Source: Christensenellaceae bacterium
GTDB lineage: Bacteria; Bacillota; Clostridia; Christensenellales; Borkfalkiaceae
DNA length: 64,000 nucleotides
NCBI GenBank assembly: GCA_045586885.1
Contig: JAZNBE010000016.1
Span: 12,757-76,756 of the forward strand
Direction: 5' to 3'
The notes under the pieces: generated by a model
The model's database searches: none
Seen by the model: only the letters and a program-made list of their open reading frames with translations
What the model was told of the DNA's origin: nothing
In this document: positions 19,060-63,288 of the stretch, one piece after another
How positions within the stretch are numbered: position 1 is the first letter of the stretch
How the letters are laid out: each line of letters starts with the position of its first letter
Program-made: the position numbers and the translations under genes

Positions 19060-19088
19060 TTGACAAGCGTTTTTTACTGTGCTATAAT
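19060..19088 (+). promoter_or_regulatory. consensus sigma-A promoter of the aromatic operon
   Basis: TTGACA (19060-19065), 17-nt spacer, TATAAT (19083-19088). Confidence 0.8.
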
Positions 19089-32080: not shown

Positions 32081-32110
32081 TTGACAAAACTTCTCGCCAT
32101 ATTATATAAT
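32081..32110 (+). promoter_or_regulatory. sigma-A-type promoter of rubrerythrin
   Basis: TTGACA, 18-nt spacer, TATAAT. Confidence 0.6.
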
Positions 32111-49405: not shown

Positions 49406-50134
49406 ATGTTTTTAGAAGATTATTTTGCTTTTTTAATTGCAATTTTGGCGTGCGCAGTCTTTTCAATATTTGCAAGCGCAAAGGTGAGGAAGGCTTTTTC
49501 CAAGCATAATAAAACTTTTTGCAGTTCTCGCTTTACCGGTTACGATACCGCTGTTAGACTTTTAAGAAGAAACGGAATTACGGAAATATCGGTAGGTAAA
49601 GTAGGCGGTTTTTTAACGGACCATTATCATCCGTCTAAAAAAATCGTAAACTTATCGGAGTCAACTTTTGGCAGTTCTTCAGTTGCGGCGGTAGCGGTTG
49701 CCGCTCACGAAATAGGCCACGTTACGCAAAAGAAAGATTCATATTTTTTCTACAATTTAAGAACGGCTTTAGTTCCGGTAGTAAATATTGGAACGAGGCT
49801 TGCAATGCCTTTAGTCTTAATAGGTATTATCTTAAGTTACTTTACGGTAGAATACGAAAGTATTGGTTTTTACGTTGCTATGGTGGGCGTAATATTTTAC
49901 GGTGGCGCGCTTTTATTTGCGTTAGTTACTTTGCCTGTTGAACTTAATGCAAGTAGAAGAGCAAAGAAAATGCTTTTAGCCGAAGGAATTTTAACCCAAA
50001 CGGAAATTGAGGGCGCTAGCGAAGTTTTATCGGCGGCGGCTCTTACTTATTTAGCGTCATTAGCAACTTCATTAGTTTATTTCTTAAGGTTTTTGCTTTA
50101 CGTTCTAACTATTTTTGGAAGAAGAAGGGATTAG
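49406..50134 (+). CDS. YugP-like membrane zinc metallopeptidase
   Basis: LTDHYHPSKKIVNLSE and VAVAAHEIGHVTQ (HExxH) in a membrane-embedded protein. Confidence 0.85.
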   Translation: MFLEDYFAFLIAILACAVFSIFASAKVRKAFSKHNKTFCSSRFTGYDTAVRLLRRNGITEISVGKVGGFLTDHYHPSKKIVNLSESTFGSSSVAAVAVAAHEIGHVTQKKDSYFFYNLRTALVPVVNIGTRLAMPLVLIGIILSYFTVEYESIGFYVAMVGVIFYGGALLFALVTLPVELNASRRAKKMLLAEGILTQTEIEGASEVLSAAALTYLASLATSLVYFLRFLLYVLTIFGRRRD

Positions 50135-50149
50135 TTGTTGAAAATAGAA

Positions 50150-50180
50150 AAGGGATTGCGTTTTCGCAATCCCTTTTTTG
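50150..50180 (+). terminator. terminator
   Basis: AAGGGATTGCG-TTTT-CGCAATCCCTT stem followed by a T-run. Confidence 0.85.
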
Positions 50181-50187
50181 TTAAAAG

Positions 50188-50209
50188 ATAGGCTATAAGC
50201 CGTTTAATT
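50188..50209 (-). repeat. REP-like motif variant (inverted)
   Basis: ATAGGCTATAAGCCGTTTAATT. Confidence 0.6.
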
Positions 50210-50222
50210 GTTTGTTTTTTAA

Positions 50223-50861
50223 TTATTTAGTGCCGAAAATTCTATCACCTGCGTCGCCTAAACCGGGAACGATATAGCCGTGTTCGTTAAGACCTCTATC
50301 TAGCGTGGCAACAAAAATTTCAACGTCAGGATAAGTATCTGCAACCTTTTTAACGCCTTCAGGGGCGGCGATAATAGCCAAGAACTTAATCTTCTTGCAA
50401 CCACGCTTTTTCAAAAGCGAAATAGCGTCGCAAGCGCTACCGCCGGTTGCAAGCATAGGGTCAACTAGCATAACTACCTTTTCTTCAATTTGAGAAGGAA
50501 GTTTGCAATAGTATTCTTGCGGTTCTAAAGTTTCTTCATCGCGGTAAAGCCCAATATGGCCAACCTTTGCCGCAGGGAATAGCGTTAAAATTCCGTCAAC
50601 CATTCCAAGCCCTGCGCGAAGAATAGGAACAATTGCAATAGAGTTTTCTCTAACTATCGTTTGAGTTGTGGTCTCTAACGGCGTTTCAACCATTGTTTCT
50701 TGGGTAGGAACGTCCTTAAAACTCTCGTATGCCATAAGCGTTGCAAGTTCTTTGATAATCTCTCTAAACTGCTTGGTATCAGTGTTTTTATTTCTAATAA
50801 TTGCGAGTTTATGGCGAATTAAAGGGTGGTCTAAAATATTAACGTTTTTATAACTTTCCAT
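50223..50861 (-). CDS. upp: uracil phosphoribosyltransferase
   Basis: [49 protein letters not shown]. Confidence 0.96.
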
Positions 50862-50882
50862 AAAACACCTTCTTTTTATTGA

Positions 50883-52313
50883 TTACGCGTTTTCAGTAGT
50901 GGTTTCTTCTTTTTCAGTTTCTACTGCTGAAACTTGTTCGTTTTTAGACTTGATAGAAGTTAGAAGGTTAGTTAAAATACCTAATATAAGTGCGCACGCA
51001 ACTGAAGTTACGGTAACTGCGCCAAAGTTTAAGGTCATACCGCCAACGCCGGCGATAAGAACTACTGAAACGGTGAAAAGGTTGCGGTTATCGCTTAAAT
51101 CTACTTTTTGAATCATCTTTAAGCCTGATACTGCAATAAAGCCGTAAAGAGCAACGCAAATGCCACCCATTACGCAAGATGGAATAGTTGCAAGGAAGGT
51201 TACGAAAGGCGCAACGAACGCTGCAATAATACAAATAATAGCGGTAGTTATTGTAGTAACAACGGAAGCGTTTCCTGAAATTGCAACGCAACCAACAGAT
51301 TCGCCGTAAGTAGTGTTAGGGCAAGAACCGAAGAACGCGCCAACCATAGAGCCTATGCCATCGCCAAGTAAAGTTCTGTGAAGACCCGGGTCTTGAGTTA
51401 AATCTTCGCCAATAATTGAAGAAATGTTCTTGTGGTCGGCAAGGTGTTCTGCAAAAACAACGAAAGCGACAGGGATATACGCAATAGCAACTGTGAGTAA
51501 ATAAGGTCCAAAATTACTCATATCGCCACTAAAAGCACCAAATGCTTCAACGAACGAGAAGTTTGGAAGCCATGCCATATTTTCAAAGAGTGAGAAGTTG
51601 ATAATTTGAAGAGCAGGGTTTGAAGTTGCGTTTCCGATAATAGTAAAGATTGTTGCAACGAAATAACCTGCAACGATACCTATAATGAAAGGAATCATCT
51701 TAAGCATTTTCTTGCCGTAAACAGAGCAAGTGATAGTAACTGCTAAAGTTATTAAACCGCAAAGTAACGCAAGGTAAGGCGATGCGGTTGGAACGAAAGA
51801 TTGCGAAGCAACGTCAAATACCGTAACGCTTCCTTTGGAAAGATCGCCTATAGCGTTGCCTGCTAGCGATAAACCTATAATTGCAACGGTAGGTCCTATA
51901 ACTGATGCAGGCATAATTTTATCAATCCACTTAACGCCTGCGTATTTAATTGCGATAGCGATGATTACGTAAACAAGACCTGCTAAGATAGCGCCGATAA
52001 TTAAGCCAAGATAACCCATTGCCATAGATGCTGCGCCAGCAACGGCTGAACACATTGAACCAATGAAGGCAAACGATGAGCCAAGGAATACAGGGCTCTT
52101 AAACTTGGTAAAAGCAAGGTAAACCAACGTGCCGCAACCTGCGCCGAAAAGCGCTGCAGATTGAGAAAGGCTTGAGCCTGTTGCGTTGTTAATGATTACA
52201 GGAACAACGATTGTTGCCGCTAAAATAGCAAGCATTTGTTGGAAGGCAAAAACCAAAGTTTTGACAAAACCAGGTTTATCTTTCACGCCGTAGATTAAGT
52301 TGGTGTTTTTCAT
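50883..52313 (-). CDS. uraA: uracil/xanthine permease family (NCS2) transporter, probable uracil permease
   Basis: Polytopic NCS2-like sequence directly upstream of upp in the same orientation. Confidence 0.82.
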   Translation of the reverse strand: MKNTNLIYGVKDKPGFVKTLVFAFQQMLAILAATIVVPVIINNATGSSLSQSAALFGAGCGTLVYLAFTKFKSPVFLGSSFAFIGSMCSAVAGAASMAMGYLGLIIGAILAGLVYVIIAIAIKYAGVKWIDKIMPASVIGPTVAIIGLSLAGNAIGDLSKGSVTVFDVASQSFVPTASPYLALLCGLITLAVTITCSVYGKKMLKMIPFIIGIVAGYFVATIFTIIGNATSNPALQIINFSLFENMAWLPNFSFVEAFGAFSGDMSNFGPYLLTVAIAYIPVAFVVFAEHLADHKNISSIIGEDLTQDPGLHRTLLGDGIGSMVGAFFGSCPNTTYGESVGCVAISGNASVVTTITTAIICIIAAFVAPFVTFLATIPSCVMGGICVALYGFIAVSGLKMIQKVDLSDNRNLFTVSVVLIAGVGGMTLNFGAVTVTSVACALILGILTNLLTSIKSKNEQVSAVETEKEETTTENA

Positions 52314-52627: not shown

Positions 52628-53164
52628 GTGGCAAAATTGACTTTCGATGATAAAACTTTATTAAAAGCCGTCAAAAGCGGTAATAAAGAAAAAATATCGC
52701 TTTTATTTAAGAGCGTTTACGAAAAATATTATAAACTAGTTTTCTTTTGCGTTTCTAAATACGTAGAAGATAATCAAATTGTAGAAGATATCGTAAACGA
52801 CACTTTTTTAAGTTTTTTTAATTCGGCAAGTAAAGTTAAATCAAGCGTTAAATATTACCTTCTAAATTCCGCTAAAAATAATGCGATAAATTATTTAAGG
52901 AAGAAAAAGCCTTCTTATGACCTTGAAAATTTAACGATAGCAAGTTCGTTTAGCGACGAAGGCGTTGTTTTTAAGCAAACGGTTGAAAAAATGCAAAAAA
53001 TTCTTTCAAAAATGGAAGTTGATATCGTTTTATTGCACGCGGTTGAAGATTTTAAGTTTAGAGAAATTGCCACTTTTCTTAAAATGAAATTGCCTACGGT
53101 TATAACTATATACAACCGAGCAATAGCAAAGTTAAAAAATTATATGGAGAAAGATTATGAATAA
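52628..53164 (+). CDS. sigma-70 family (ECF-like) RNA polymerase sigma factor
   Basis: AAAGGGGG RBS, GTG start; 178 aa with region 2-like (IVEDIVNDTFLSFF) and region 4 HTH (FKFREIATFLKMKLPTVITIYNRAIAKLK). Confidence 0.8.
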   Translation: MAKLTFDDKTLLKAVKSGNKEKISLLFKSVYEKYYKLVFFCVSKYVEDNQIVEDIVNDTFLSFFNSASKVKSSVKYYLLNSAKNNAINYLRKKKPSYDLENLTIASSFSDEGVVFKQTVEKMQKILSKMEVDIVLLHAVEDFKFREIATFLKMKLPTVITIYNRAIAKLKNYMEKDYE

Positions 53165-54152
53165 GACGTTTAAAAATTTTATCGACAAAAACGTTGACGT
53201 AGATTTTGATTTTTCGAAAATTGCTAGTAAAATCAACTACGAAAAATGCGTTGAAAAGAAGAATAAAAAATCACTTTATTTTACCAAAAAGGTGTTAGCG
53301 TTTGCTCTTATTCTTGCTATTTTAGTTGTTCCAACCACAGTTTATATGATAAACAACAACACAAAAAACGTTCATACAAACAATGCTCAAGCAAGCCAAA
53401 ATTTTAACGGCGGTATTTTAGGCTCTAACGAATTTAATAATAGCAAAGAAGAAAATTTTGCTAATGGGGTAGTTGGTGGCGTATCATCTAACTCGTCTTA
53501 CGGCGGAGAAATGGTTGAAGTTATTAAATTTAGTTTTTCGCTTGGCGAATTTGTATATATGACGGAATTTTTTCAAGATATTAGCGAAATTGAAATAACT
53601 TTAGGCGATGAAAAAATCTATCTTGAAAGCGCTTTCGTTCAAGGCGTCGGCGTTTGCGAAATTTATAAGTTTACGAATTCAAAAAAGAGTCTTGCGGTAA
53701 AAATAGACGATAAGTTTTATAGGTTTGACGTAAGTGAGTATTCCGGTGATTTTAAGAAAGACGTTGAGTTTGTTTACGAGTATGACGAGCAAGAATATTT
53801 AAGCGCTCCGTTTATTAAAGACGTAACTATTAATTTAGGCGAAAACAAAAACAAACTTGGTCAAGATAAAGCGAACGAGTTATTCGGTTATTTTTTAGAT
53901 GCATATCTTGATAACGACGGAAACATTAATTTTCATAACGAACTTTATAAAAAATACGTAAATCAAGTAAGCAGTGGGCAAGGCTTTATAGGAACGGTTG
54001 AAAATACTTATGAAATAGAGTTCGAAACGGTTTTAGGTTCAACGTTTACGTGCTTTTATCATAAAACTTATTGGGAAGAAAATAAATACGTTTTGTTATT
54101 TGAAGGTTACTATAAAATTAGCGATGAAGCAGTAGATATTATTCTTAGATAA
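53157..54152 (+). CDS. putative anti-sigma factor (single-pass membrane protein)
   Basis: 8-nt overlap with the sigma gene; short cytoplasmic N-terminus, one TM (VLAFALILAILVVPTTVYMI), ~260-aa extracytoplasmic domain of unknown fold. Confidence 0.6.
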   Translation: MNKTFKNFIDKNVDVDFDFSKIASKINYEKCVEKKNKKSLYFTKKVLAFALILAILVVPTTVYMINNNTKNVHTNNAQASQNFNGGILGSNEFNNSKEENFANGVVGGVSSNSSYGGEMVEVIKFSFSLGEFVYMTEFFQDISEIEITLGDEKIYLESAFVQGVGVCEIYKFTNSKKSLAVKIDDKFYRFDVSEYSGDFKKDVEFVYEYDEQEYLSAPFIKDVTINLGENKNKLGQDKANELFGYFLDAYLDNDGNINFHNELYKKYVNQVSSGQGFIGTVENTYEIEFETVLGSTFTCFYHKTYWEENKYVLLFEGYYKISDEAVDIILR

Positions 54153-54166
54153 AATTTCCTTTTTGG

Positions 54167-54190
54167 GCGTGGCTTTTGCCACGCTTTTTT
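54167..54190 (+). terminator. terminator
   Basis: GCGTGGC-TTTT-GCCACGC stem followed by T6. Confidence 0.8.
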
Positions 54191-54401: not shown

Positions 54402-54429
54402 TTGACAATTTCTCCTTTAGTGATATAAT
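54402..54429 (+). promoter_or_regulatory. near-consensus sigma-A promoter of the ATPase/WXG-like operon
   Basis: TTGACA, 16-nt spacer, TGaTATAAT. Confidence 0.65.
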
Positions 54430-54466
54430 ATTTTATTATAATATAATAACAAAGGGAGATTTTGTT

Positions 54467-56512
54467 ATGGCTAATGACAATAAAAAGAAAGGTTTGGACG
54501 CATTTGCAGGGCGAAAGGTTGGTGGCGACGCTAAGTATCGCGCGCATCACTTAGAAGCCTTAAGAATTGAACGCGCTAAAGCGGCTGAACAAAGAATTAA
54601 AGATTTTTATAACCAAGCGAAAACGCTTGATTGGTCTCGTCGCGCGATGGCGTTTTGCGATGAAGAAGAAGCAGCTGCAAAAGAATACGCTGATATTTGC
54701 GGTTCTTTAGATTTGTTGCCTAAAATTAGAAGAGAGGCTCAAATTCGTATCGACGAAGAGAACGATAGGCTTAGAAAAATTGAAGAAGAGAAAGAGAAAA
54801 AGCGTTTAGAAGAAGAGGCTAAAGAAAAAGAACGCTTAAGACAAATTGAAGAGCAAAAGAGAATACAAGCCGAAAAAGAAGCCGAGCAAAAACGCCAACT
54901 CGAGCTTATGAAACAGCAACAAGAGTTAAAAGAAATGGCGGAAGAACAAGAGTTCGTTGCCGATATTGAAAAGATTATTTCATCGCTTTCTAAAGACGTT
55001 AGAAACGAGGCTTGGGTTGACGGTGTTAAAAACACTCACGCAATAGCAACCGGCTTAGAAAAAAGGGTTTACGATAAGATTAAAAATCGTTTTTTATTAG
55101 AAGGCTTTGTAAAAGAAATTGAAGACGTTGAACTCGCTATCGATATCGACGACGAGATTATCGACCTTCAAAACGCAAAGAATAAGAATAAGGCTTGGGC
55201 GTCTAAAGTGTTTGCTTTAGAGGGCGAACTTGACGGAAAACACGAAAAATATTTAACGCAAAAGCCAACTTACTTCAAACTTGTTACGCTTGCTAACAAG
55301 GTTTATTACGCAAGCGAGTTGTCTTCTTTAGAAAATTTCATAATTAAAGTAGAACAAGGTCAAGGCGCGTCGTTCGTTGATGAACTTGAAAACGTAATGA
55401 AGAAAAAACAAACGCTTGCCGACCAAATTTTAATTGAAGAATTCATTACTGGTTTTGACCTTCGTTTCCAAAAGGCAGTATCTACCGTAAACGATATTAT
55501 TGCCGATAGAAAAAGAAGGGAAAAGGAGGCTAAAGAAAAGGCTCAAAAAGAAGAGAAAGAGAGAATACGTAAACAAAAGGCGGAAGAGGCTGAAAGACTT
55601 CGTATTCAAAAAGAAGAAGAAAGAAAGGCTAAACTCGAAGCAGAGCGCTTAGCGAAAATTAAAGCGGATGAAGAGGCTGCTGAAGCGGCAAGACAGCGCG
55701 CTAAAAAAGAAGCGGAACGTCAAGCGGCGTTAAAGAAAGCAAGGCGCAGAAATTTAATTGAAATAATTTCCGTTTCGCTCGTTTTCGTTGCGTTCCTAGT
55801 TCTTGGCATTATAACTAAAAACGTTACGCGTTCGTTCTTCTTAGGTTTTGGTTTAGTTGCCGTAATATCTTACGTTTACTTTAGACTTGCCCAAATTTTA
55901 AGAAATTTAGATAAAGAATCTTTAAGAGCGGTAATATTCACTATTTTAATGATAGCCGAAGCAATTCTTGGTGTCGTTTTCGTATTCGTTGATAGAGGTT
56001 ATAATGGTAATCAATTAGGAATTGTAACCACGGCTCTTGCTCTTGGCATAATTGCTCAAGGTCTTAGCACCTATTTCGTTGGTGGAAACTATCTTGAAGA
56101 TATTGAAAAAGATATAATTTCTATTTTCTGCGTAGTAGCAGGCGCATTGTTAGGCTCTGGAATTTTCCTTATGTCTGGCGCAAGCATATGGTCAGGATTA
56201 GCAGGCGGTATAATCGTAGCGGCAGGCGCTTTCGTTGCTATTTGGGTTAACTATGAAGTATCGTCTTACCATTACGATATAGGCATTTTCATAGAAGTTG
56301 GCTATGCAATTATGGCGGTAATAGGCTGTATTCTTTGCTTATTTGATGCTTGGAGTTTATATATTCTCGGCGCGTTCTTTATAGTATCTAGCGCGGTTTC
56401 GGCATTTCTTATGGGTAATGATGACATTGACGGAGGCTACCTTGTTGGGTCTATTGCGTCGATTGGAGGGCTTATCTTCCTAATTGCAGGTTTGGTTATT
56501 TGTTTAACCTAA
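54467..56512 (+). CDS. hypothetical polytopic membrane protein with ~430-aa cytoplasmic Glu/Lys-rich coiled-coil region
   Basis: GGGAGA RBS; two E/K/R coiled-coil blocks; about 8-9 TM helices from ~55760 to the C-terminus; no family recognised. Confidence 0.8.
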   Translation: MANDNKKKGLDAFAGRKVGGDAKYRAHHLEALRIERAKAAEQRIKDFYNQAKTLDWSRRAMAFCDEEEAAAKEYADICGSLDLLPKIRREAQIRIDEENDRLRKIEEEKEKKRLEEEAKEKERLRQIEEQKRIQAEKEAEQKRQLELMKQQQELKEMAEEQEFVADIEKIISSLSKDVRNEAWVDGVKNTHAIATGLEKRVYDKIKNRFLLEGFVKEIEDVELAIDIDDEIIDLQNAKNKNKAWASKVFALEGELDGKHEKYLTQKPTYFKLVTLANKVYYASELSSLENFIIKVEQGQGASFVDELENVMKKKQTLADQILIEEFITGFDLRFQKAVSTVNDIIADRKRREKEAKEKAQKEEKERIRKQKAEEAERLRIQKEEERKAKLEAERLAKIKADEEAAEAARQRAKKEAERQAALKKARRRNLIEIISVSLVFVAFLVLGIITKNVTRSFFLGFGLVAVISYVYFRLAQILRNLDKESLRAVIFTILMIAEAILGVVFVFVDRGYNGNQLGIVTTALALGIIAQGLSTYFVGGNYLEDIEKDIISIFCVVAGALLGSGIFLMSGASIWSGLAGGIIVAAGAFVAIWVNYEVSSYHYDIGIFIEVGYAIMAVIGCILCLFDAWSLYILGAFFIVSSAVSAFLMGNDDIDGGYLVGSIASIGGLIFLIAGLVICLT

Positions 56513-56519
56513 ATTTGCG

Positions 56520-56555
56520 GAAGTTAAATTTTATAAAGAAGTTAAATTTTATAAA
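56520..56555 (+). repeat. perfect tandem 18-mer x2 in the gap before the ATPase gene
   Basis: GAAGTTAAATTTTATAAA repeated head to tail; followed by AATTATAATAT x2 at about 56569-56592. Confidence 0.9.
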
Positions 56556-56669
56556 AGCGAATCAAAAAAAATTATAATATAAATTATAATATTTTAGTGG
56601 TTTTGATGGGTTAAACGCCAATCATAACCAATTTTAACAAAAAAACACTTAAAACGTTGTAGGTATAAA

Positions 56670-59600
56670 ATGGGTTCAAGTTTAAGCGAATTAAAAAAAT
56701 TAAGAGTAACTTATGAAGCCGAACTAGCCGATAGAAAGGCATTTTATTCGATTGCCGTAAAGGAAGCCAAAAGCGACTATGAGCGTTCGCAAAAGATTGA
56801 TTTTGTCGATGAAGAAAAGTTAAGGTTTGAAATGTCTTTAGAATCGCTTGAAGATTTATATCAAGACCTTCTTAACATTTACGCAAAAACCAAGGGCTTA
56901 ACTTTTTCTATCACAAAACATATAGTAACGGTAACACCACGTCCCGTTCCTTTCGGCGAAGTTTACGCATATTTTGATAGAATTGTTGAAGATTGTAACG
57001 GCGCTTTAGACGAAATTGAAAGAAGTTCTACCCCTGAGCAAGATATTAAGCCTATAAAGGCTTTCTGTCAAGGCTTAGTTGATTTAAGATACGTAGTTAA
57101 AAACGTTCGCCAACTTATTCTTGATACTGGTGATACGCAACGCCGTAAAGCCGAAATTTTAGATAAGAAAAGGCAAGAGATTTCTAACGCGGAAAGAGAA
57201 TTTAAAGAGCAAACTTTACTTGAAAATTTCGATTGCTATCCTGAACTTATGAAGTTTAGAAATAAGGTTATCGAAGAAAGTAAAATTATCGAAGAGAGTA
57301 TGCTTGCAAATAGGCCTATATCGCCTAGAAACGACCATAAGTTCCTTATGGGTTTTTACGTTTCTCAAATTCCTAAAGATGACCTTAATTTTGCCGAAAA
57401 GGTCTTAGATATTCCAACTTCATGTTTTGCTCAAGACCCAATTTATTTTAATCTTGAAGCCGACCATACCTGTTTATTGATTAACGCTCCAAAACTTTTC
57501 TTTACTAAGTCGGAAGTGTTCTTTAACGATAAAACTAGGAAGTTAGAGTTCTACAAACTTTTAGTTAATCTTTACTTTAGTTTCGTTAGCAATATGCCGG
57601 CAAAGGGGCTTTTGTTTGGTGGCGTTGAGCCTGAAGAAGGCGGAACTTCTCACGTTTCGGCGTTAGAACTTAGAATTAAAAAAGACCTAGAAAACGCGCT
57701 CTTTAAAGACGTTAGAAGAAAGGTTGACGGCACTACCGATTCAATCCCTGAACTTTTCGAAGAGTTAAATAAACTTTGCGAAGATAGGGCAACGAGTTTT
57801 ATTGACGTAATGCATAGCGATATTTTCTCGTTCAACGAAGAAAACCCTGCGAGCGCAGAGCATTTTGTATTGTTTGCGGTAAACCGTTATCCTTACGGCT
57901 TAAACACTTCGCGTTTTAACGGAAGAGACGAACTTATAAAACTAGCAACCCAAAACGGTAATTTTGGCGCGATTTCTATAATTTTCCAAGAAAGCGACGC
58001 TAATTTTACGGCTGAAGCGCCTATGCTAACGGCGGAAGAATTAAATGCTGACGTTATTGATTTCCACGCCGACGGCTCGGTTACCTACAACGGTAAAAAG
58101 GCAACGCTAGACGTTTGCGTACCTAATTTCAATATTCCTGAATATTTCAAAGAAATCGCTAAATACCTTCAAGGCGCGTCTTCTATTAGTTTGTTTGATA
58201 TTTTAGATAGAGAAAATAAGAAAAAAGAAGAGCAAAAAAGAGCGGAAAAGACTGGTAAACTTGCTCCTCACAAGCGCTTAGTTGTGCCTATGGGCGAATC
58301 AAGGGGCGAGCCTTTCAACTTTACGATGAAGTCTTGCTCAACCGAGAGTTTTGCGCTCTTAGTGGGAACGGCTGGCTCTGGTAAATCTTCGTTCTTGCAT
58401 ACCTTCATTTTGAGCGTTGCATCTAAATATTCGCCTGATGAAATTCAGTTCGGGCTTATCGACTTTAAGTCGGATGAAGACTCGCCTGAATTCTCACAAT
58501 ATAAGCGTATTCCCGGTAAAGATAACCTTTATATTCCACACGTAAACTACCTTATGGTAAACGGTAAGCCAGAGTGCGCCGTTGACCTTTTCAGTATGCT
58601 TAGCGATATCAAGAAAGAAAGAAGTAAAATGTTCACCGCTCTTGGCGTTAGCGAACTTTCTGCTTATAACGAACACCCTAGAGTTGTAAGCGGTGAACTT
58701 CCTAAACTTCCTATTTTGTTCTTCATAATCGATGAATATAACGTTATGTTAGAAGGCGACGGCACTCGTGATAGAAACATAAACCGTAAAATCGTTACGG
58801 CTTTAACTTCAACTATAAAACTTGTTAGAGCGTGCGGTATTGGCATTATGCTTTCAGGTCAATCGGTTGCTACCGGTATTATGGGCGAAGAAGGCGCGCT
58901 AGCGCAAATGAATACTAGAATTTCGCTCTATACTAATAGTATCGAAGGTTATACTTCGCTAATGGGTTCTAACAACGTGCCATCACGTGATGCTAAGGCG
59001 GACGTTGATTACCTTCGTGATAAAGGTTTCTCTATTTTTACTACCGACGCAGGTAGAACCAGAACTCAAGTTCGCCACGCATACGCAGGTAATACCGGTT
59101 GCAAAAAGCAACTTGATTTAGCAAGAAAAATTCGTGAAAAATACGGCGATAACACTCAATTAGTCGCAGGCGCTGAAACGCTTTACCCTATCAGCCACGA
59201 TAAGAAAGGCGTTGCAAATATCGGTATTTGTGAAGGTAGTGATTTCCAAATTCCTATCGGCGTATCATCAGCGAGTATGAAACCGCAAGGCTTGGAATAT
59301 TCTAGTGAGAAAGACTCTTTAGGTTATTTCGCTCTAGCAAGCGCAGAACAACTTAACGCTATTGAAATCAACGCTATTTTATCGTTTATAGCAACGGTTG
59401 AAGAGCATAAACTTGGAAACGAAAAAGTCGTTTATATTGGCGATGGTCAATCATACGAAGGGCATCTTGACGAATACGTTGAGAAGTTTAAGCCTATAGG
59501 CGATAGAGTTGAACTTGCTATTGGCGCGATAGAAGGCGCTAAAAAACTTATTGAAATTTACGACTTAGTTGAAGAACGCGAAAAGCAAGCCAACGCTAAA

Positions 59601-60233
59601 AAAGGCGCTAAACCAGACCCTAAATTCGTTGTTTTGCGTGATATTGAGTGGCTTTCCGACGATGAAAACAGTTGGATTTCAGAACTTAACACGCCTGAAA
59701 AGGCAGAAGTTAAAGCCGTGCCAAACCCTGACTTAAAGCCTGTTGGTAAAGTGGTAACGGTGGAAGATTTACTTAAAGAAAAGCCCGGTCTTGCAGCACT
59801 TCCGCTACCTACTTTAGAAGCGATGGCAAAGCAAGCAACTTACGGAAAGCAAACCACAACCATAAAGCCTGAAGTAAAACAAGGCGAGAAAAAGCGTAGA
59901 ATTACTATTGACTTATTAAGAAATATGCTCAAGAAAATTTACGAGCGTGGAAACAGAGTAAACGTATTCGTTATTATAACTGGCGAAACTATCGACGCGT
60001 TCAAAAAGGTTGTTCTTGATAAAATTAGCGAATCTAATAGAGTTAAAGCGCAAGAAAGTTTTGCAGTTTACGCTTCGCAAAACGAATACGTAAACCCTAA
60101 CAAGCGTGATGAAGATTGCGTTAAAGATTGCGTTTACGTTTGCCCAAGCGAAAGTAAAACGAGATTATTTGATTATTCCATTGAGAACAATAAGGCTTGG
60201 TGGGATGCATTTATTAAAAAATTGGAGAAATAG
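56670..60233 (+). CDS. FtsK/SpoIIIE-family P-loop ATPase (1187 aa) lacking TM and FHA regions
   Basis: Walker A LVGTAGSGKSS (~58358-58390), LIDFK, Walker B LPILFFIIDEYN (~58710-58742), GIGIMLSGQS; N-terminal ~230 aa coiled coil; no hydrophobic segment. Confidence 0.85.
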   Translation: MGSSLSELKKLRVTYEAELADRKAFYSIAVKEAKSDYERSQKIDFVDEEKLRFEMSLESLEDLYQDLLNIYAKTKGLTFSITKHIVTVTPRPVPFGEVYAYFDRIVEDCNGALDEIERSSTPEQDIKPIKAFCQGLVDLRYVVKNVRQLILDTGDTQRRKAEILDKKRQEISNAEREFKEQTLLENFDCYPELMKFRNKVIEESKIIEESMLANRPISPRNDHKFLMGFYVSQIPKDDLNFAEKVLDIPTSCFAQDPIYFNLEADHTCLLINAPKLFFTKSEVFFNDKTRKLEFYKLLVNLYFSFVSNMPAKGLLFGGVEPEEGGTSHVSALELRIKKDLENALFKDVRRKVDGTTDSIPELFEELNKLCEDRATSFIDVMHSDIFSFNEENPASAEHFVLFAVNRYPYGLNTSRFNGRDELIKLATQNGNFGAISIIFQESDANFTAEAPMLTAEELNADVIDFHADGSVTYNGKKATLDVCVPNFNIPEYFKEIAKYLQGASSISLFDILDRENKKKEEQKRAEKTGKLAPHKRLVVPMGESRGEPFNFTMKSCSTESFALLVGTAGSGKSSFLHTFILSVASKYSPDEIQFGLIDFKSDEDSPEFSQYKRIPGKDNLYIPHVNYLMVNGKPECAVDLFSMLSDIKKERSKMFTALGVSELSAYNEHPRVVSGELPKLPILFFIIDEYNVMLEGDGTRDRNINRKIVTALTSTIKLVRACGIGIMLSGQSVATGIMGEEGALAQMNTRISLYTNSIEGYTSLMGSNNVPSRDAKADVDYLRDKGFSIFTTDAGRTRTQVRHAYAGNTGCKKQLDLARKIREKYGDNTQLVAGAETLYPISHDKKGVANIGICEGSDFQIPIGVSSASMKPQGLEYSSEKDSLGYFALASAEQLNAIEINAILSFIATVEEHKLGNEKVVYIGDGQSYEGHLDEYVEKFKPIGDRVELAIGAIEGAKKLIEIYDLVEEREKQANAKKGAKPDPKFVVLRDIEWLSDDENSWISELNTPEKAEVKAVPNPDLKPVGKVVTVEDLLKEKPGLAALPLPTLEAMAKQATYGKQTTTIKPEVKQGEKKRRITIDLLRNMLKKIYERGNRVNVFVIITGETIDAFKKVVLDKISESNRVKAQESFAVYASQNEYVNPNKRDEDCVKDCVYVCPSESKTRLFDYSIENNKAWWDAFIKKLEK

Positions 60234-60235
60234 TT

Positions 60236-60517
60236 ATGTTTAAGTATGATCAAGTTAAAGAATTGAGCGACGTTATGCTTAGCGACCTTGCTTCGTTGCG
60301 TAGTAGGGTAGAGTTTCTTAAAGATAAAACTGAAACGTTCAAAGAAATTTTGGGCGACACTATTGCCGATAGCGCTTTAACCTTGGTTGAAGATATTTCT
60401 TCAACGATTAATCAAACGGAATTGATTATTCGTGATAGAACTACAAAAACCGGCGAATTTGCCGAAGCAATTTCAACCACAGAGAAAATAATTAGAGGGA
60501 AGGTATCAAGACAATGA
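60236..60517 (+). CDS. small all-helical protein (93 aa), WXG100/Lap-like candidate
   Basis: Starts 2 nt after the ATPase stop; heptad-rich sequence of helical-hairpin size; no Trp. Confidence 0.7.
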   Translation: MFKYDQVKELSDVMLSDLASLRSRVEFLKDKTETFKEILGDTIADSALTLVEDISSTINQTELIIRDRTTKTGEFAEAISTTEKIIRGKVSRQ

Positions 60518-60810
60518 GTAACGAACAAATTCTTGCCGCAACTGAAGAACTTGAAAGCATAGTATCGCAATATTATAGCGAACTTAATTCTTTCATTAAA
60601 AATATGGAAAACGAGATTGATAACTTAAGAAACAGACTTATAGATATCAGTCGTAATTGGGATGACCAACATTTTAGAGAGTTCAAGTCTAGCGTGGAGG
60701 CAAAAATTAGAGATCTTGAAGTTCAATTAGACCGCGCGAAAAACCTTCTTCAAATCGTTGCCGAAACGAGAAAAGCTTTTGCCGATGCTATCGCTATTTT
60801 AAAAAGTTAA
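60514..60810 (+). CDS. small helical-hairpin protein (98 aa), WXG100-like with central W-D-D
   Basis: ATGA overlap with the preceding gene; two ~45-aa helical halves flank RNWDDQ (TGG 60658-60660) where WXG100 proteins carry WxG. Confidence 0.7.
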   Translation: MSNEQILAATEELESIVSQYYSELNSFIKNMENEIDNLRNRLIDISRNWDDQHFREFKSSVEAKIRDLEVQLDRAKNLLQIVAETRKAFADAIAILKS

Positions 60811-60873
60811 CGCTCTTACTTAAATTTTATAATTTAAAAAACTTGATTTTTAAGTAAATTTTAGAGGTGTTTT

Positions 60874-61128
60874 ATGGGTAAAACCTATTCCGGTCCTGGT
60901 TTTTTCGACGCAAGTTATACCGTTGAAGACGTAACTTTCTCAAAAACTTCGTGGGATGATATGCTTGGCAACGCTATGAACGCTAAAGCAAAAACTATTC
61001 CGTCTTCTTTTAACTATTATCATAGAGATATTTGGGAAAGAATAGGCCCGCTTATGAAGATTGATGAAGACGCAATTCAATATAGTTCTAACGCTTATGA
61101 AATAGAGGGGTTAAAAATAGATGAGTAG
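60874..61128 (+). CDS. hypothetical protein (84 aa)
   Basis: AGAGGTG RBS; 8-nt overlap with the next gene. Confidence 0.6.
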   Translation: MGKTYSGPGFFDASYTVEDVTFSKTSWDDMLGNAMNAKAKTIPSSFNYYHRDIWERIGPLMKIDEDAIQYSSNAYEIEGLKIDE

Positions 61129-62131
61129 TATTTACGTTTCCCCTAGTCAAATAAGCCGTTTTAAGAGCGACGTAAACGATATGTCAACGAAAATTAGAGA
61201 TTACACCTACGAAACTAATTCCCACGCCGACGAAGTTACGTCAAAAGCAAACCGAGCCATTTCTAACGCGCAACAAGCCATCGAAACTATGAACGACGAC
61301 TTAGAAAAAGCCGCTGAAGTTATGGAACATAACCAAGAATTGTTATATGCTCTCGAGGCTAAATTTGACAAAGTGCAAAAACAACTTTCCGCCGCAAAAG
61401 AAGCCTACCAAGCCGCAAAAGAAGCGCAAACTGACGCTAAAAACTCGTCTTCCGGTTCAACGGAAGAAGAAAGAAAAGCTCATAACCAAGCCGTTAGCGA
61501 GGCTAACGCTGCGGTTAGGTCAACTGGGAGCGACGTTTCTTATTACGAAGGTCAGTTAAATAGAATTCGTAACGATATTAAGCGTGTAAATTCGGCAATA
61601 AATCAGTTAAATAATATTATTTACCGCATAAACAATCAAAGAAGAGAAGCGGTAAACTATATTGAAGAAATTGCTAGTGGTCTTCGCGCATTGCAATCTA
61701 GAAGATCGCCTTTTAACGATGCGTCCGCAAAAGCCATAAACGAGTGTAGCGCAGTCGAAATGGTTGCAGACTCTGCGTATTCGTTAATTAAAGGCGCAAT
61801 CTCTTTAATGAGCGAATCGGCAGGCAAAGGCGCTGGTGGGTATGATGACGATCAAATTAGTATGAATTCGCCAAACGCTCTTTTATCCGCTGCTGAAAGC
61901 CTTGAAGAGATGAAAGCGCAAACTATCGAATTTACTAACGTGCAAAAAGAGAACGTGCTCTATTTTGAAGAAATTATGGGTGATAGTATTGCTCAAGAAC
62001 TTGCATCCGCTTGCTTAGATATCGGCGAAAGTATGACCGATGCTACGGCATCTTTTGACGATAAAGCCGAATTTTTAAGAGAAGCGTATAGAAATTTATG
62101 CAATTACCTATCTTTAGCAAATAGAGTGTAA
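61121..62131 (+). CDS. hypothetical helical/coiled-coil protein (336 aa)
   Basis: Long predicted helices (AISNAQQAIETMNDDLEKAAEVMEHNQELLYALEAKFDKVQKQLSAAKEAYQAAKEAQ); coupled on both sides. Confidence 0.7.
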   Translation: MSSIYVSPSQISRFKSDVNDMSTKIRDYTYETNSHADEVTSKANRAISNAQQAIETMNDDLEKAAEVMEHNQELLYALEAKFDKVQKQLSAAKEAYQAAKEAQTDAKNSSSGSTEEERKAHNQAVSEANAAVRSTGSDVSYYEGQLNRIRNDIKRVNSAINQLNNIIYRINNQRREAVNYIEEIASGLRALQSRRSPFNDASAKAINECSAVEMVADSAYSLIKGAISLMSESAGKGAGGYDDDQISMNSPNALLSAAESLEEMKAQTIEFTNVQKENVLYFEEIMGDSIAQELASACLDIGESMTDATASFDDKAEFLREAYRNLCNYLSLANRV

Positions 62132-62637
62132 TGAAAATTATAGTCGTTGGCAATATAAATAGCGGTAAGTCGTTTTTGGTTGATAAAATATCTCAAGCGT
62201 TTGAAGACTTTAAGGTTTTAAAAATTGATGATTTTAGAGAAAAACTTGGCGATGGAACAATAGATAAAGAAGTTTTAATTTGGGAAATTTTTTCAAAAGA
62301 AGTTCAAAAAACTAAAAACGCAATAGTTGAAATAACCGGCGTTGGAAAGCCTAGTGAAGAACTTGCTAAAAACAATGAAGATAGCGTTATTTTAGTAAAG
62401 GTTTTAACTAAAAAGAGCGTTTGTTTAGAAAGGTTAAAACAAAAAGATTTTACTTCCTTAAAATACCCTAAAGGCTTGCAAAAAATCGAAGACACTATAA
62501 GTTCAATAGACCTAAAGATAGGAAAAGGTGAAGTTGAAAAGTTGTTTTTAGATAACGTTAAAGCCGTAATAGAAGTTGATTTTCAAAAAATTAGAGTAAG
62601 TGAAATTGTTGAAAAAATAAAGAAAGAACTTTGCTAA
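62131..62637 (+). CDS. small P-loop NTPase/kinase-like protein (168 aa)
   Basis: N-terminal Walker A IVVGNINSGKSFL; TAATG overlap with the preceding gene. Confidence 0.7.
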   Translation: MKIIVVGNINSGKSFLVDKISQAFEDFKVLKIDDFREKLGDGTIDKEVLIWEIFSKEVQKTKNAIVEITGVGKPSEELAKNNEDSVILVKVLTKKSVCLERLKQKDFTSLKYPKGLQKIEDTISSIDLKIGKGEVEKLFLDNVKAVIEVDFQKIRVSEIVEKIKKELC

Positions 62638-62686: not shown

Positions 62687-63232
62687 ATGAAATACTTAAT
62701 TGCGAGCGATATTCACGGCTCTAACTATAACGCAAAACTTTTATTAAAAGCCTTTTATAATGAAAACGCAGATAAGTTAATTTTGCTAGGCGATATTTTG
62801 TATCACGGAGCAAGAAACGATTTAACAAACGATTATAACACTAAAGAAGTTGCGCGCCTTTTAAATTCAATTAAAGATAAAATAGTTTGCGTTAGGGGTA
62901 ATTGCGATAGCGAAGTTGACCAAATGGTTTTAGAATTTTCTATCGAAGAAGATTTAAAAATTATCGAGTTTTATAAAAGGAAAATAGCGTTAATTCACGG
63001 TCATAAGCGTTTTGAAGAAGCGCTTATGAGATTAAATGGCGGCGATATCTTATTATCAGGGCACACGCATATTCCAGTTTATCAAAACTATAATGGTGTT
63101 TATCATTTTAACCCGGGCTCAACGTCAATTCCAAAAGGCGGAAGTCATCAAGGCTATATTTTATTAGAAGAAAATAAGGCTACGTTTAAAAACTTTTTTG
63201 GCGAAATTAAATTTGAAGTTGAATTAAAATAA
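62687..63232 (+). CDS. YfcE-type metallophosphoesterase
   Basis: SDIHGS, GDILYHG, GNCDS, GHTH motifs. Confidence 0.85.
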   Translation: MKYLIASDIHGSNYNAKLLLKAFYNENADKLILLGDILYHGARNDLTNDYNTKEVARLLNSIKDKIVCVRGNCDSEVDQMVLEFSIEEDLKIIEFYKRKIALIHGHKRFEEALMRLNGGDILLSGHTHIPVYQNYNGVYHFNPGSTSIPKGGSHQGYILLEENKATFKNFFGEIKFEVELK

Positions 63233-63240
63233 ACAAAAAA

Positions 63241-63267
63241 ACGACGATAATTTATCGTCGTTTTTTT
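63241..63267. terminator. bidirectional terminator
   Basis: ACGACGATA-loop-TATCGTCGT stem with A-run before and T7 after. Confidence 0.8.
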
Positions 63268-63288
63268 GTTTGGGGTTTATTAAAAACG

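Follow-up and report, generated by a model that had tools for sequence, protein, structure and literature searches.

We analyzed a 64,000-nucleotide stretch of DNA from a Christensenellaceae bacterium (GenBank assembly GCA_045586885.1, contig JAZNBE010000016.1), hereafter called the window, and identified a conserved cassette of six genes encoding a polytopic membrane protein (mem), an FtsK/SpoIIIE-type ATPase, three small proteins (s1, s2 and s3) and a longer all-helical protein (big). With moderate confidence, we read this locus as coding for a divergent and minimal apparatus of type VII-like protein export, although export itself is something that we infer. The cassette most likely represents an undescribed type VII secretion system (T7SS) variant.

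The homology and the fold of the 1187-aa ATPase carry this reading. The protein contains a single Pfam FtsK_SpoIIIE domain (residues 534-718, 4e-17), and its best NCBIfam matches are EssC (TIGR03928, 1e-19) and EccCa (TIGR03924, 1e-18), with FtsK at 2.5e-5. By sequence, the best matches in the PDB are EccC (4nh0), EccC5 (7b9f) and YukB (9qks), while FtsK comes last. In an AlphaFold2 (AF2) model built on 14 family sequences, with a mean predicted local distance difference test score (pLDDT) of 82.7, a helical N-domain (residues 1-210) is followed by three tandem FtsK-like alpha/beta domains: a degenerate one (~224-500), an active FtsK-type P-loop domain (534-830) and a second degenerate one (858-1187). 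Foldseek aligned this model best to T. curvata EccC, over its cytoplasmic part with three ATPases (4nh0; 1078 columns aligned at E 2e-24), and then to EssC D2-D3 (4lya), EccC D2-D3 (4n1a) and S. aureus EssC (5fv0), each over 650-685 columns. A regex scan found Walker A only once; Walker A and Walker B are kept in the middle domain only, and both are invariant in the alignment of the 14 sequences. The same alignment shows strong conservation of the helical N-domain, with many invariant residues, which suggests that this domain may serve as a binding surface. The NCBIfam scores and the multi-domain Foldseek alignments support an EssC/EccC-like protein rather than a DNA translocase. The window thus encodes the tandem-domain type of ATPase that is expected of type VII secretion, but with three domains instead of four, and with Walker A and B in only one of them.

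The ATPase appears to be soluble, and the claim of a first-pass annotation of the window that it has neither transmembrane (TM) helices nor an FHA region was confirmed. The Kyte-Doolittle score over 19 residues peaks at 1.47 in this protein and stays below 1.6 throughout all eight orthologues, and no FHA domain was matched.

The small helical proteins provide the second line of evidence. Single-sequence scans of these proteins against Pfam, NCBIfam, PHROG and PADLOC returned mostly coiled-coil noise, and a signal emerged only after orthologue profiles had been built. The top match of the s2 profile in the whole PDB was S. aureus EsxA (2vs0, E 2.6e-4) with the WEG motif aligned, and streptococcal WXG100 proteins and EsxB stood lower in the list. 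Pfam WXG100 (PF06013) was matched by six of the eight s2 members (best 9e-6), and precomputed annotations record 'weak' or 'faint' WXG100 matches in loci L003, L008, L013 and L014. The tryptophan W49 is invariant in a family motif W-x-G/D, which reads W49-D50-D51 at the centre of the window protein, where it had been noticed before, and W-E-G (L003, L008 and L009), W-N-D or W-R-D in orthologues. Judged by its profile, s2 is a divergent member of the WXG100 family and not a typical one.

Orthologues of s1 are present in all loci, with a conserved G/Q-D turn at residues 40-41. The s1 family is homologous to residues 252-327 of the big family (hhalign probability 90%, E 2e-6), and this kinship is also seen in a BLAST match within L003 (6e-5) and in a shared M-[GQ]-D turn. 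These alignments identify s1 as a paralog of the C-terminus of big. A crude, alignment-averaged analysis detected alpha-helical amphipathic periodicity in 93-100% of sequence windows for s1, s2 and big, with breaks only at the expected turns; for s1 the figure is 100%, and the only Gly-rich column is position 40. This periodicity supports a hairpin fold of the small proteins indirectly, a fold whose absence had been named beforehand as an outcome against a type VII-like system, and s1 is probably a hairpin. Of the proposal that the 93-aa (s1) and 98-aa (s2) proteins are both WXG100-like, the part concerning s2 was sustained by the EsxA and Pfam matches, and the part concerning s1 was not.

The protein s3 has orthologues in all eight close loci (described below) and in L012, which share the motifs W-[ND]-D-x-[VL]-G, F-N and Y-x-S, and it gave no informative match in Pfam, NCBIfam or PDB searches, including the profile search. 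Its AF2 model is of low confidence (pLDDT 55) and contains one long helix (residues 30-61) and two short strands, with no confident beta-grasp. As modelled, s3 is neither a confident hairpin nor a demonstrable YukD/ubiquitin-like protein. The W-N-D-x-V-G motif of s3, which an 87-aa protein of L014 has in similar form, also led us to consider a degenerate WXG hairpin; an hhalign comparison of s2 with s3 gave a probability of 0.4% and no support.

Orthologues of big are likewise present in all loci, at 19-60% identity, and end in a predicted s1-like hairpin with an M-G-D turn and a C-terminal motif A-x3-L-x2-Y. Database matches of big are coiled-coil noise, with LXG (PF04740) at E 0.0097 and 16 bits against a cut-off of 26.5, and the profiles of s1 and big yielded no informative PDB match. 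By analogy with known modules, big is a candidate for the main substrate.

The gene set is conserved as a unit. A word-indexed protein search returned 16 full-length relatives of the ATPase (32-100% identity) and four of mem; the genomic context was fetched for seven of the ATPase relatives, which together with the window make up eight close loci. A scan of a genome collection with the single ATPase query, by exact peptide patterns, had given two loci only, and the relative found there (L001) is 58% identical. The window comes from a metagenome-assembled Clostridia genome near Pumilibacteraceae. All eight close loci, down to 32% ATPase identity, share six orthologous genes in an unchanged order: first one large membrane protein or two that are paralogs, then an ATPase of ~1160-1190 aa, and proteins of ~94 aa, ~100 aa, ~72-86 aa and ~300-358 aa. 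All-against-all BLAST confirmed the orthology at each position. The conserved core consists of mem, ATPase, s1, s2, s3 and big. The first-pass annotation had treated seven genes as one unit; six of them are co-conserved in the eight loci, while the seventh, a 168-aa P-loop protein gene, occurs only in the window and in an 83%-identical relative (L011). This gene is lineage-specific and lies outside the conserved system, so its proposed role as a part of the system did not hold.

The flanks of the cassette are unrelated housekeeping genes, such as glyS, recN, parC and prfA in L003 and L008, pflA and recD2 in L004 and plsX in L010, with upp also among the genes around the close loci; glycoside hydrolases flank the cassette in L006. 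Since the same block stands between unrelated flanks, the cassette is chromosomal and moves as a unit. No mobile element could be recognised around it in the close clade: the mobile-element hypothesis was rejected on the housekeeping flanks and on the absence of a full-length ATPase homologue from 72,556 plasmids, and viral contigs contained only a domain-level match to the ATPase. No island signature was found in the GC content of the window. The co-conservation check proposed beforehand thus came out in favor of a genuine gene set.

These results bear on the possibility that the ATPase is a conjugative or chromosomal DNA translocase (TcpA-, TraB-, FtsK- or SftA-like) in a mobile element and that the small open reading frames (ORFs) are unrelated to it. 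The FtsK_SpoIIIE domain, the Foldseek matches to FtsK (1.7e-13) and TcpA (3e-11) and a PHROG 'FtsK/SpoIIIE-like' match (2e-23) would agree with such a function. However, the alignments to FtsK and TcpA are confined to one domain (~300-340 columns, E 1e-13 to 1e-10), those to EccC and EssC extend across two to three domains at better E-values, and the FtsK HMM (hidden Markov model) match is 14 orders of magnitude weaker than that of EssC. Neither the block nor its non-syntenic housekeeping flanks suit a mobile element, as relaxase, integrase and replication genes are absent from the block, and the small genes are strictly co-conserved with and translationally coupled to the ATPase gene. FtsK/SpoIIIE/TcpA/TraB translocases are expected to have a single motor domain, a DNA-binding module and a division or conjugation context; the window ATPase has three tandem domains, and no relaxase or conjugation genes accompany it. 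Grouping with DNA translocases had been named beforehand as an outcome that would speak against a type VII-like system; NCBIfam and Foldseek favored EccC/EssC instead, and the translocase explanation is largely refuted, with hardly any probability left to it.

The family looked tiny until an exhaustive HMM search with the ATPase against 1.84 billion representatives yielded 421 proteins at E <= 1e-30. Among the best 150 of these representatives, 94 are 1000-1260 aa long, contain no more than one Walker A motif (near residue 540-600 in most of the 94) and are anchorless, as no segment of their N-terminal 400 residues reaches 1.7 on the Kyte-Doolittle 19-residue scale. Only one of ten sampled representatives was named, as 'hypothetical protein [Clostridia bacterium]'. 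By homology, the locus belongs to a large unnamed family and is not a one-off. The four distant loci L012-L015 all contain one to four W-x-G/D proteins directly after the ATPase. In L012-L014, these proteins have 87-108 aa and are followed by a protein of 323-388 aa; their motifs are 'GWEGEL' in L012 (E 1e-117), 'FWGGDQ' in L013 (E 1e-72) and 'EEWNDN', 'SDWDDQ' and 'SEWNDE' in L014 (E 1e-50).

The most remote of these loci (L015:2477-13640, IMG/VR UViG_3300022589_001211, GC 52%) encodes an FtsK-like ATPase of 1153 aa without an anchor and, with it, an 89-aa protein that resembles s2 ('SEWNDP', HMM E 2e-8). Upstream are genes for Prok-JAB, ThiF/E1, resolvase, DUF4928 and C5-methyltransferase proteins, and downstream are Sel1-repeat proteins; a link between ubiquitin-like conjugation genes and a WXG/ATPase module is conceivable here. 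This context of JAB, E1, resolvase and methyltransferase genes indicates that the module can also ride on islands.

The exhaustive search also returned eight giant proteins of 2300-3075 aa (P0087, P0093, P0098, P0101, P0107, P0112, P0113 and P0120) with 5-10 tandem FtsK-type Walker A motifs, most of them with N-terminal hydrophobic segments; their number of ATPase domains is far above that of any described EssC or EccC. The other of the two loci from the genome-collection scan, in Ruminococcaceae bacterium KHP2 (L002:1-21674), has ORFs of 97, 833, 157, 74 and 433 aa ahead of a 1419-aa ATPase and resembles a canonical T7SSb-like locus. The identity of its ATPase to that of the window, 25%, is confined to the P-loop domain, and it would make a suitable outgroup.

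A candidate for the membrane part is mem. In the window, ~430 aa of charged helical region are followed by hydrophobic segments from residue 431 to the C-terminus, with nine Kyte-Doolittle peaks, some of which overlap, giving about eight TM helices; this matches the earlier description of a 681-aa protein with a long charged helix and 8-9 TM helices. An alignment of ten orthologues and paralogs shows a conserved cytoplasmic N-domain with invariant F13, Y24, W56, A60, W183 and W244, then a charged E/K-rich coiled-coil stretch and finally the hydrophobic region, which extends to the very C-terminus. No Pfam or NCBIfam model matched mem, and its profile had no PDB match at E <= 0.01. The gene lies directly upstream of the ATPase gene in all eight close loci. 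On the ground of this strict adjacency, which is seen in one clade, mem is proposed as the membrane partner or platform of the ATPase, in line with the role first suggested for it; the adjacency agrees with that suggestion, but in L013 and L014 no mem homologue was detectable. As to variation within the family, mem is tandemly duplicated in L003 (5302-9974) and L004 (1043-5594), with paralogs that are 32-41% identical, and its N-domain has an internal repeat of a 'WA..A..FC' segment in L006 (7986-9986) and L010 (2423-4498).

We then propose a model for the type VII-like apparatus. One sigma-70 promoter would drive mem, the ATPase and the four helical proteins. The ATPase would be an EssC/EccC-type motor that either lost its FHA domains and its two N-terminal TM helices or never possessed them, with the highly conserved 210-aa helical N-domain standing in their place. 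This N-domain may dock on the cytoplasmic helical domain of mem, which would provide the anchor in the membrane and perhaps also the conduit, so that the two proteins would function together as a 'split EssC'. The proposal follows from the arrangement of mem (cytoplasmic domain, then TM helices) ahead of a soluble stalk and ATPase, which mirrors the FHA-TM-ATPase order in EssC. The ATPase would presumably form hexamers and hydrolyze ATP in the middle P-loop domain (the D1 equivalent) alone; by analogy with EccC and EssC, the degenerate domains on either side may have a regulatory role and bind substrate. The putative substrates are s2 paired with s1, and big. The s1-like C-terminal hairpin of big, perhaps together with s3, could form a composite helical targeting signal, as in Lap/LXG or 'reverse' substrates. 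The contact between ATPase and mem, and the choice of s1, s2 and big as exported proteins, are likewise what we infer.

Several results weigh against an export apparatus. An ATPase without TM helices lacks a defining mechanical element of type VII secretion, and by hydropathy the membrane-bound ATPase is missing from the eight orthologues and from the 94 wider-family representatives. The TM region of mem is poorly conserved and ranges from ~8 to 18 or more helices, which is odd for a defined channel; beyond this fast-evolving region there is no conserved channel candidate, and in place of mem L013 and L014 have other small TM proteins. The WXG100 protein expected in a type VII cluster is represented by s2, but all its WXG100 scores fall below the curated Pfam cut-offs and its motif reads W-D-D in the window. 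With the window s2 alone, a sub-threshold YwqH-like match (9e-6) ranks first, and WXG100 is absent among the 25 best Pfam matches. No WXG100 similarity was detected for s1 (profile search and Pfam scan of the members) or for s3. No EssA, EssB/YukC, EsaA/YueB, EsaB/YukD or EccB/D/E was found in the block or its neighbours by Pfam, NCBIfam and profile searches, which extends the earlier remark that EssA, EssB/YukC, EsaA/YueB and EsaB/YukD could not be recognised. Furthermore, big has no toxin domain, the locus contains no toxin/immunity genes or signal motifs, and the gene downstream of it is not conserved. All members of the ATPase family come from uncultured metagenome-assembled genomes (MAGs).

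Many of these points would also suit a non-exporting machine in the cytoplasm or at the membrane periphery: a soluble hexameric ATPase that remodels, assembles or disassembles bundles of s1, s2, s3 and big, with mem only as a tether, possibly as an envelope-stress, division or sporulation scaffold. A motor without a TM segment, a variable and poorly conserved mem TM region, as expected of an anchor and not of a channel, the lack of another conserved channel-forming component and the lack of toxin/immunity genes all agree with it; so do the extracytoplasmic function (ECF) sigma/anti-sigma pair just upstream of the block in the window and L011, and spoIIP next to the cassette in L013. However, wherever an EssC/EccC-type multi-domain ATPase together with WXG100 proteins has been characterised, the pair is a mark of secretion (PMC11217815). 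In addition, the ATPase fold matches T7SS ATPases over several domains, and the flanks vary, with no regular association with division or sporulation genes. We consider a non-exporting machine unlikely, though it deserves to be kept in view. If it were correct, WXG100 proteins and EssC-like ATPases would have a cytoplasmic function that predates secretion or has diverged from it.

An anti-phage defence or island conflict system, with a sensor or motor role for the ATPase and an effector or regulator role for the small helical proteins, would account for the domain-level PADLOC matches of the ATPase (mad8 4e-12, SspH 1e-8) and for the ATPase and WXG-like pair beside JAB, E1, resolvase, DUF4928 and methyltransferase genes in L015. 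Against this, the PADLOC matches span only the generic P-loop domain and are weaker than those to EssC/EccC, and the other block genes have no PADLOC match beyond coiled-coil noise. The eight close loci lie in housekeeping surroundings (glyS, parC, prfA, plsX and upp) and have no nuclease, methylase or other defence genes. A defence function is therefore improbable.

Within the preferred reading of a type VII-like export apparatus, it is tempting to speculate, although rather doubtfully, that the family is a type VII lineage with a wholly soluble motor, in which the conduit would come from a separate and unrelated polytopic coiled-coil protein, as a split EssC or as an independent solution. 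In current structural models, the TM helices of EccC/EssC stand at the centre of the type VII translocation pore. A large, conserved family in which the multi-domain motor and the WXG100 proteins persist but the motor has no anchor bears directly on this pore model. If the soluble-motor lineage is real, the ATPase's own TM helices would not be needed for type VII-type export, and such a lineage would be widespread in uncultured gut and rumen Clostridia, where all RefSeq-based surveys have missed it. If the apparatus does export, motor and channel could be separate polypeptides, which would point to a new channel or platform protein. In either case, the locus adds an unannotated system, whose members are labelled 'hypothetical protein', to the abundant uncultured Clostridia of the animal gut.

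The features of the locus are collected in Table 1. An ORF check placed all seven same-strand ORFs and their junctions, as well as the GSGKS Walker A, where the first-pass annotation had put them, and the near-consensus promoter that it reported proved to be a perfect one. Three perfect promoter sites occur in the whole window, against 0.01 expected from shuffles. Within the block, the ATPase and s1 genes are separated by a 2-nt gap with GGAG just upstream, the s1 and s2 genes overlap by 4 nt, the s2 and s3 genes are separated by 63 nt with an AGAGGTG ribosome-binding site, the s3 and big genes overlap by 8 nt, and the big and 168-aa genes are translationally coupled by a 1-nt TAATG overlap. 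The gap between the mem and ATPase genes is 157 nt in the window, compared with 14-67 nt in the other close loci. The hairpin after the metallophosphoesterase gene is probably the end of the transcription unit.

Table 1. Coordinates of the features of the type VII-like locus in the window.
Feature	Position	Strand	Remarks
Terminator-like hairpin	54165-54186		closes upstream operon; separates ECF sigma/anti-sigma pair from block
Promoter, sigma-70 type, TTGACA-16 nt-TATAAT with extended -10 TG	54402-54429	+	12/12 match; 38 nt 5' of first gene
mem, 681-aa membrane protein gene	54467-56512	+	
1187-aa EssC/EccC-like ATPase gene	56670-60233	+	
Walker A motif of ATPase, G566-T-A-G-S-G-K-S573	58365-58388	+	regex scan and family alignment
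Walker B of ATPase, D688-E689	58731-58736	+	family alignment
s1, 93-aa helical protein gene	60236-60517	+	
s2, 98-aa divergent WXG100 (EsxA-like) protein gene	60514-60810	+	
s3, 84-aa small protein gene	60874-61128	+	
big, 336-aa all-helical protein gene	61121-62131	+	
s1-like C-terminal ~76 aa of big	61874-62101 (DNA)	+	hhalign homology to s1
168-aa P-loop kinase-like gene	62131-62637	+	weak AAA_33, dNK, PRK07261 matches
181-aa metallophosphoesterase gene	62687-63232		Metallophos_2 match 2e-23
Bidirectional intrinsic-terminator-like hairpin	63230-63272	both	20-pair stem

Around the block, the window contains an ECF-type sigma factor (178 aa, Sigma70_r2/r4) whose gene overlaps that of a 331-aa single-TM protein, likely its anti-sigma factor (52628-54152). 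This pair is conserved in the window and L011 only and is not core; its position makes a regulatory link to the block possible. Compared with window positions 49406-52313, L011 (3411-4670) has phage-type integrase and helix-turn-helix genes upstream of a Zn-peptidase gene. The upp and uracil-permease genes, which in the window stand between the peptidase and the sigma factor, are missing from L011; this difference is a local rearrangement adjoining the block, not within it. Two more perfect TTGACA-N17/18-TATAAT promoters lie on the + strand at 19060-19088 and 32081-32110. The 168-aa P-loop protein also gave a weak 'DNA topology modulation protein' match, and Sel1/TPR proteins flank the block in L006.

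We compared the locus with the described subtypes T7SSa-j, which were defined by Garrett, Higginson and Palmer 2024 (PMC11217815) in a survey that began with a RefSeq BLAST using EssC. Since the window family is MAG-only and highly divergent, such a survey would miss it; in the literature that we searched, neither a soluble or TM-less EssC nor any subtype beyond T7SSj came up. The locus matches no described subtype a-j. We place it outside them because it has the ATPase kinship and the WXG100 protein of type VII secretion and lacks the membrane-bound ATPase. Its anchorless ATPase, the absence of T7SSb accessories and the lack of a match among T7SSa-j agree with the earlier proposal of a variant structurally distinct from a standard T7SSb.

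The locus shares with T7SSb (Ess/Yuk; EssC/YukB and EsxA/YukE) a tandem P-loop-fold FtsK/SpoIIIE-type ATPase, whose active domain is closest to D1 of EssC/EccC, an adjoining gene for an EsxA-like ~100-aa protein with a central W-x-G-type motif, helical candidate substrates in the same operon and a Bacillota host. It differs in that the ATPase has no FHA domains or TM helices and three P-loop-fold domains instead of four, with Walker motifs in one, and the WXG motif reads W-D-D. A novel polytopic coiled-coil protein is present in place of EssA, the pseudokinase EssB/YukC, EsaA/YueB and EsaB/YukD.

Like T7SSc-j, the locus combines a minimal core of ATPase (TsxC) and WXG100 protein (TsxA) with lineage-specific accessories, and small WXG100-related partner genes adjoin the candidate substrates (PMC11217815). 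T7SSc, g and h also lack FHA domains, and T7SSf and j occur in Clostridia (PMC11217815). In contrast to the window ATPase, those of all subtypes a-j, including every TsxC, are described as membrane-bound (PMC11217815). Most subtypes have a YukD-like TsxB, which T7SSd lacks and which was not found at the window locus. The kinase, PPM phosphatase, FHA protein, vWA, EspG-like, TsdI and DUF5050 accessories of T7SSc-j are absent from the window, and none of T7SSa-j has a coiled-coil polytopic protein.

The order of the last genes recalls the Lap1/Lap2-LXG and 'reverse' T7SSb modules, in which two or three small helical proteins lie directly 5' of a longer helical protein. The C-terminal hairpin domain predicted for the long protein is related to a small partner, a feature shared with the 'reverse' substrates TslA and TslM, and s2 has a weak YwqH-like match. 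Unlike these modules, the window locus has no significant LXG match, no toxin domain and no adjacent immunity gene, and it is strictly ATPase-linked and invariant, not polymorphic. The Lap/LXG resemblance claimed earlier thus appears to hold for the layout and the s1-like C-terminal hairpin, and does not extend to an LXG domain or a toxin/immunity pair.

The ESX systems (T7SSa), finally, differ in that EccCa keeps its TM helices, described as pore-forming for T7SSa EccC (PMC11217815), whereas the whole window ATPase is soluble. EccB, EccE and MycP are absent from the window, the hosts are monoderm Clostridia, and mem has neither detectable similarity to EccD nor a detected ubiquitin-like N-domain. 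Yet ESX offers the closest precedents for the proposed architecture: the split EccCa/EccCb for a motor on two polypeptides, and the polytopic EccD, with 11 TM helices and a cytoplasmic N-domain, for a membrane protein that scaffolds the ATPase. The non-identical small helical pair of the cassette resembles EsxA/EsxB, and the best structural match of the ATPase is the actinobacterial EccC (4nh0).

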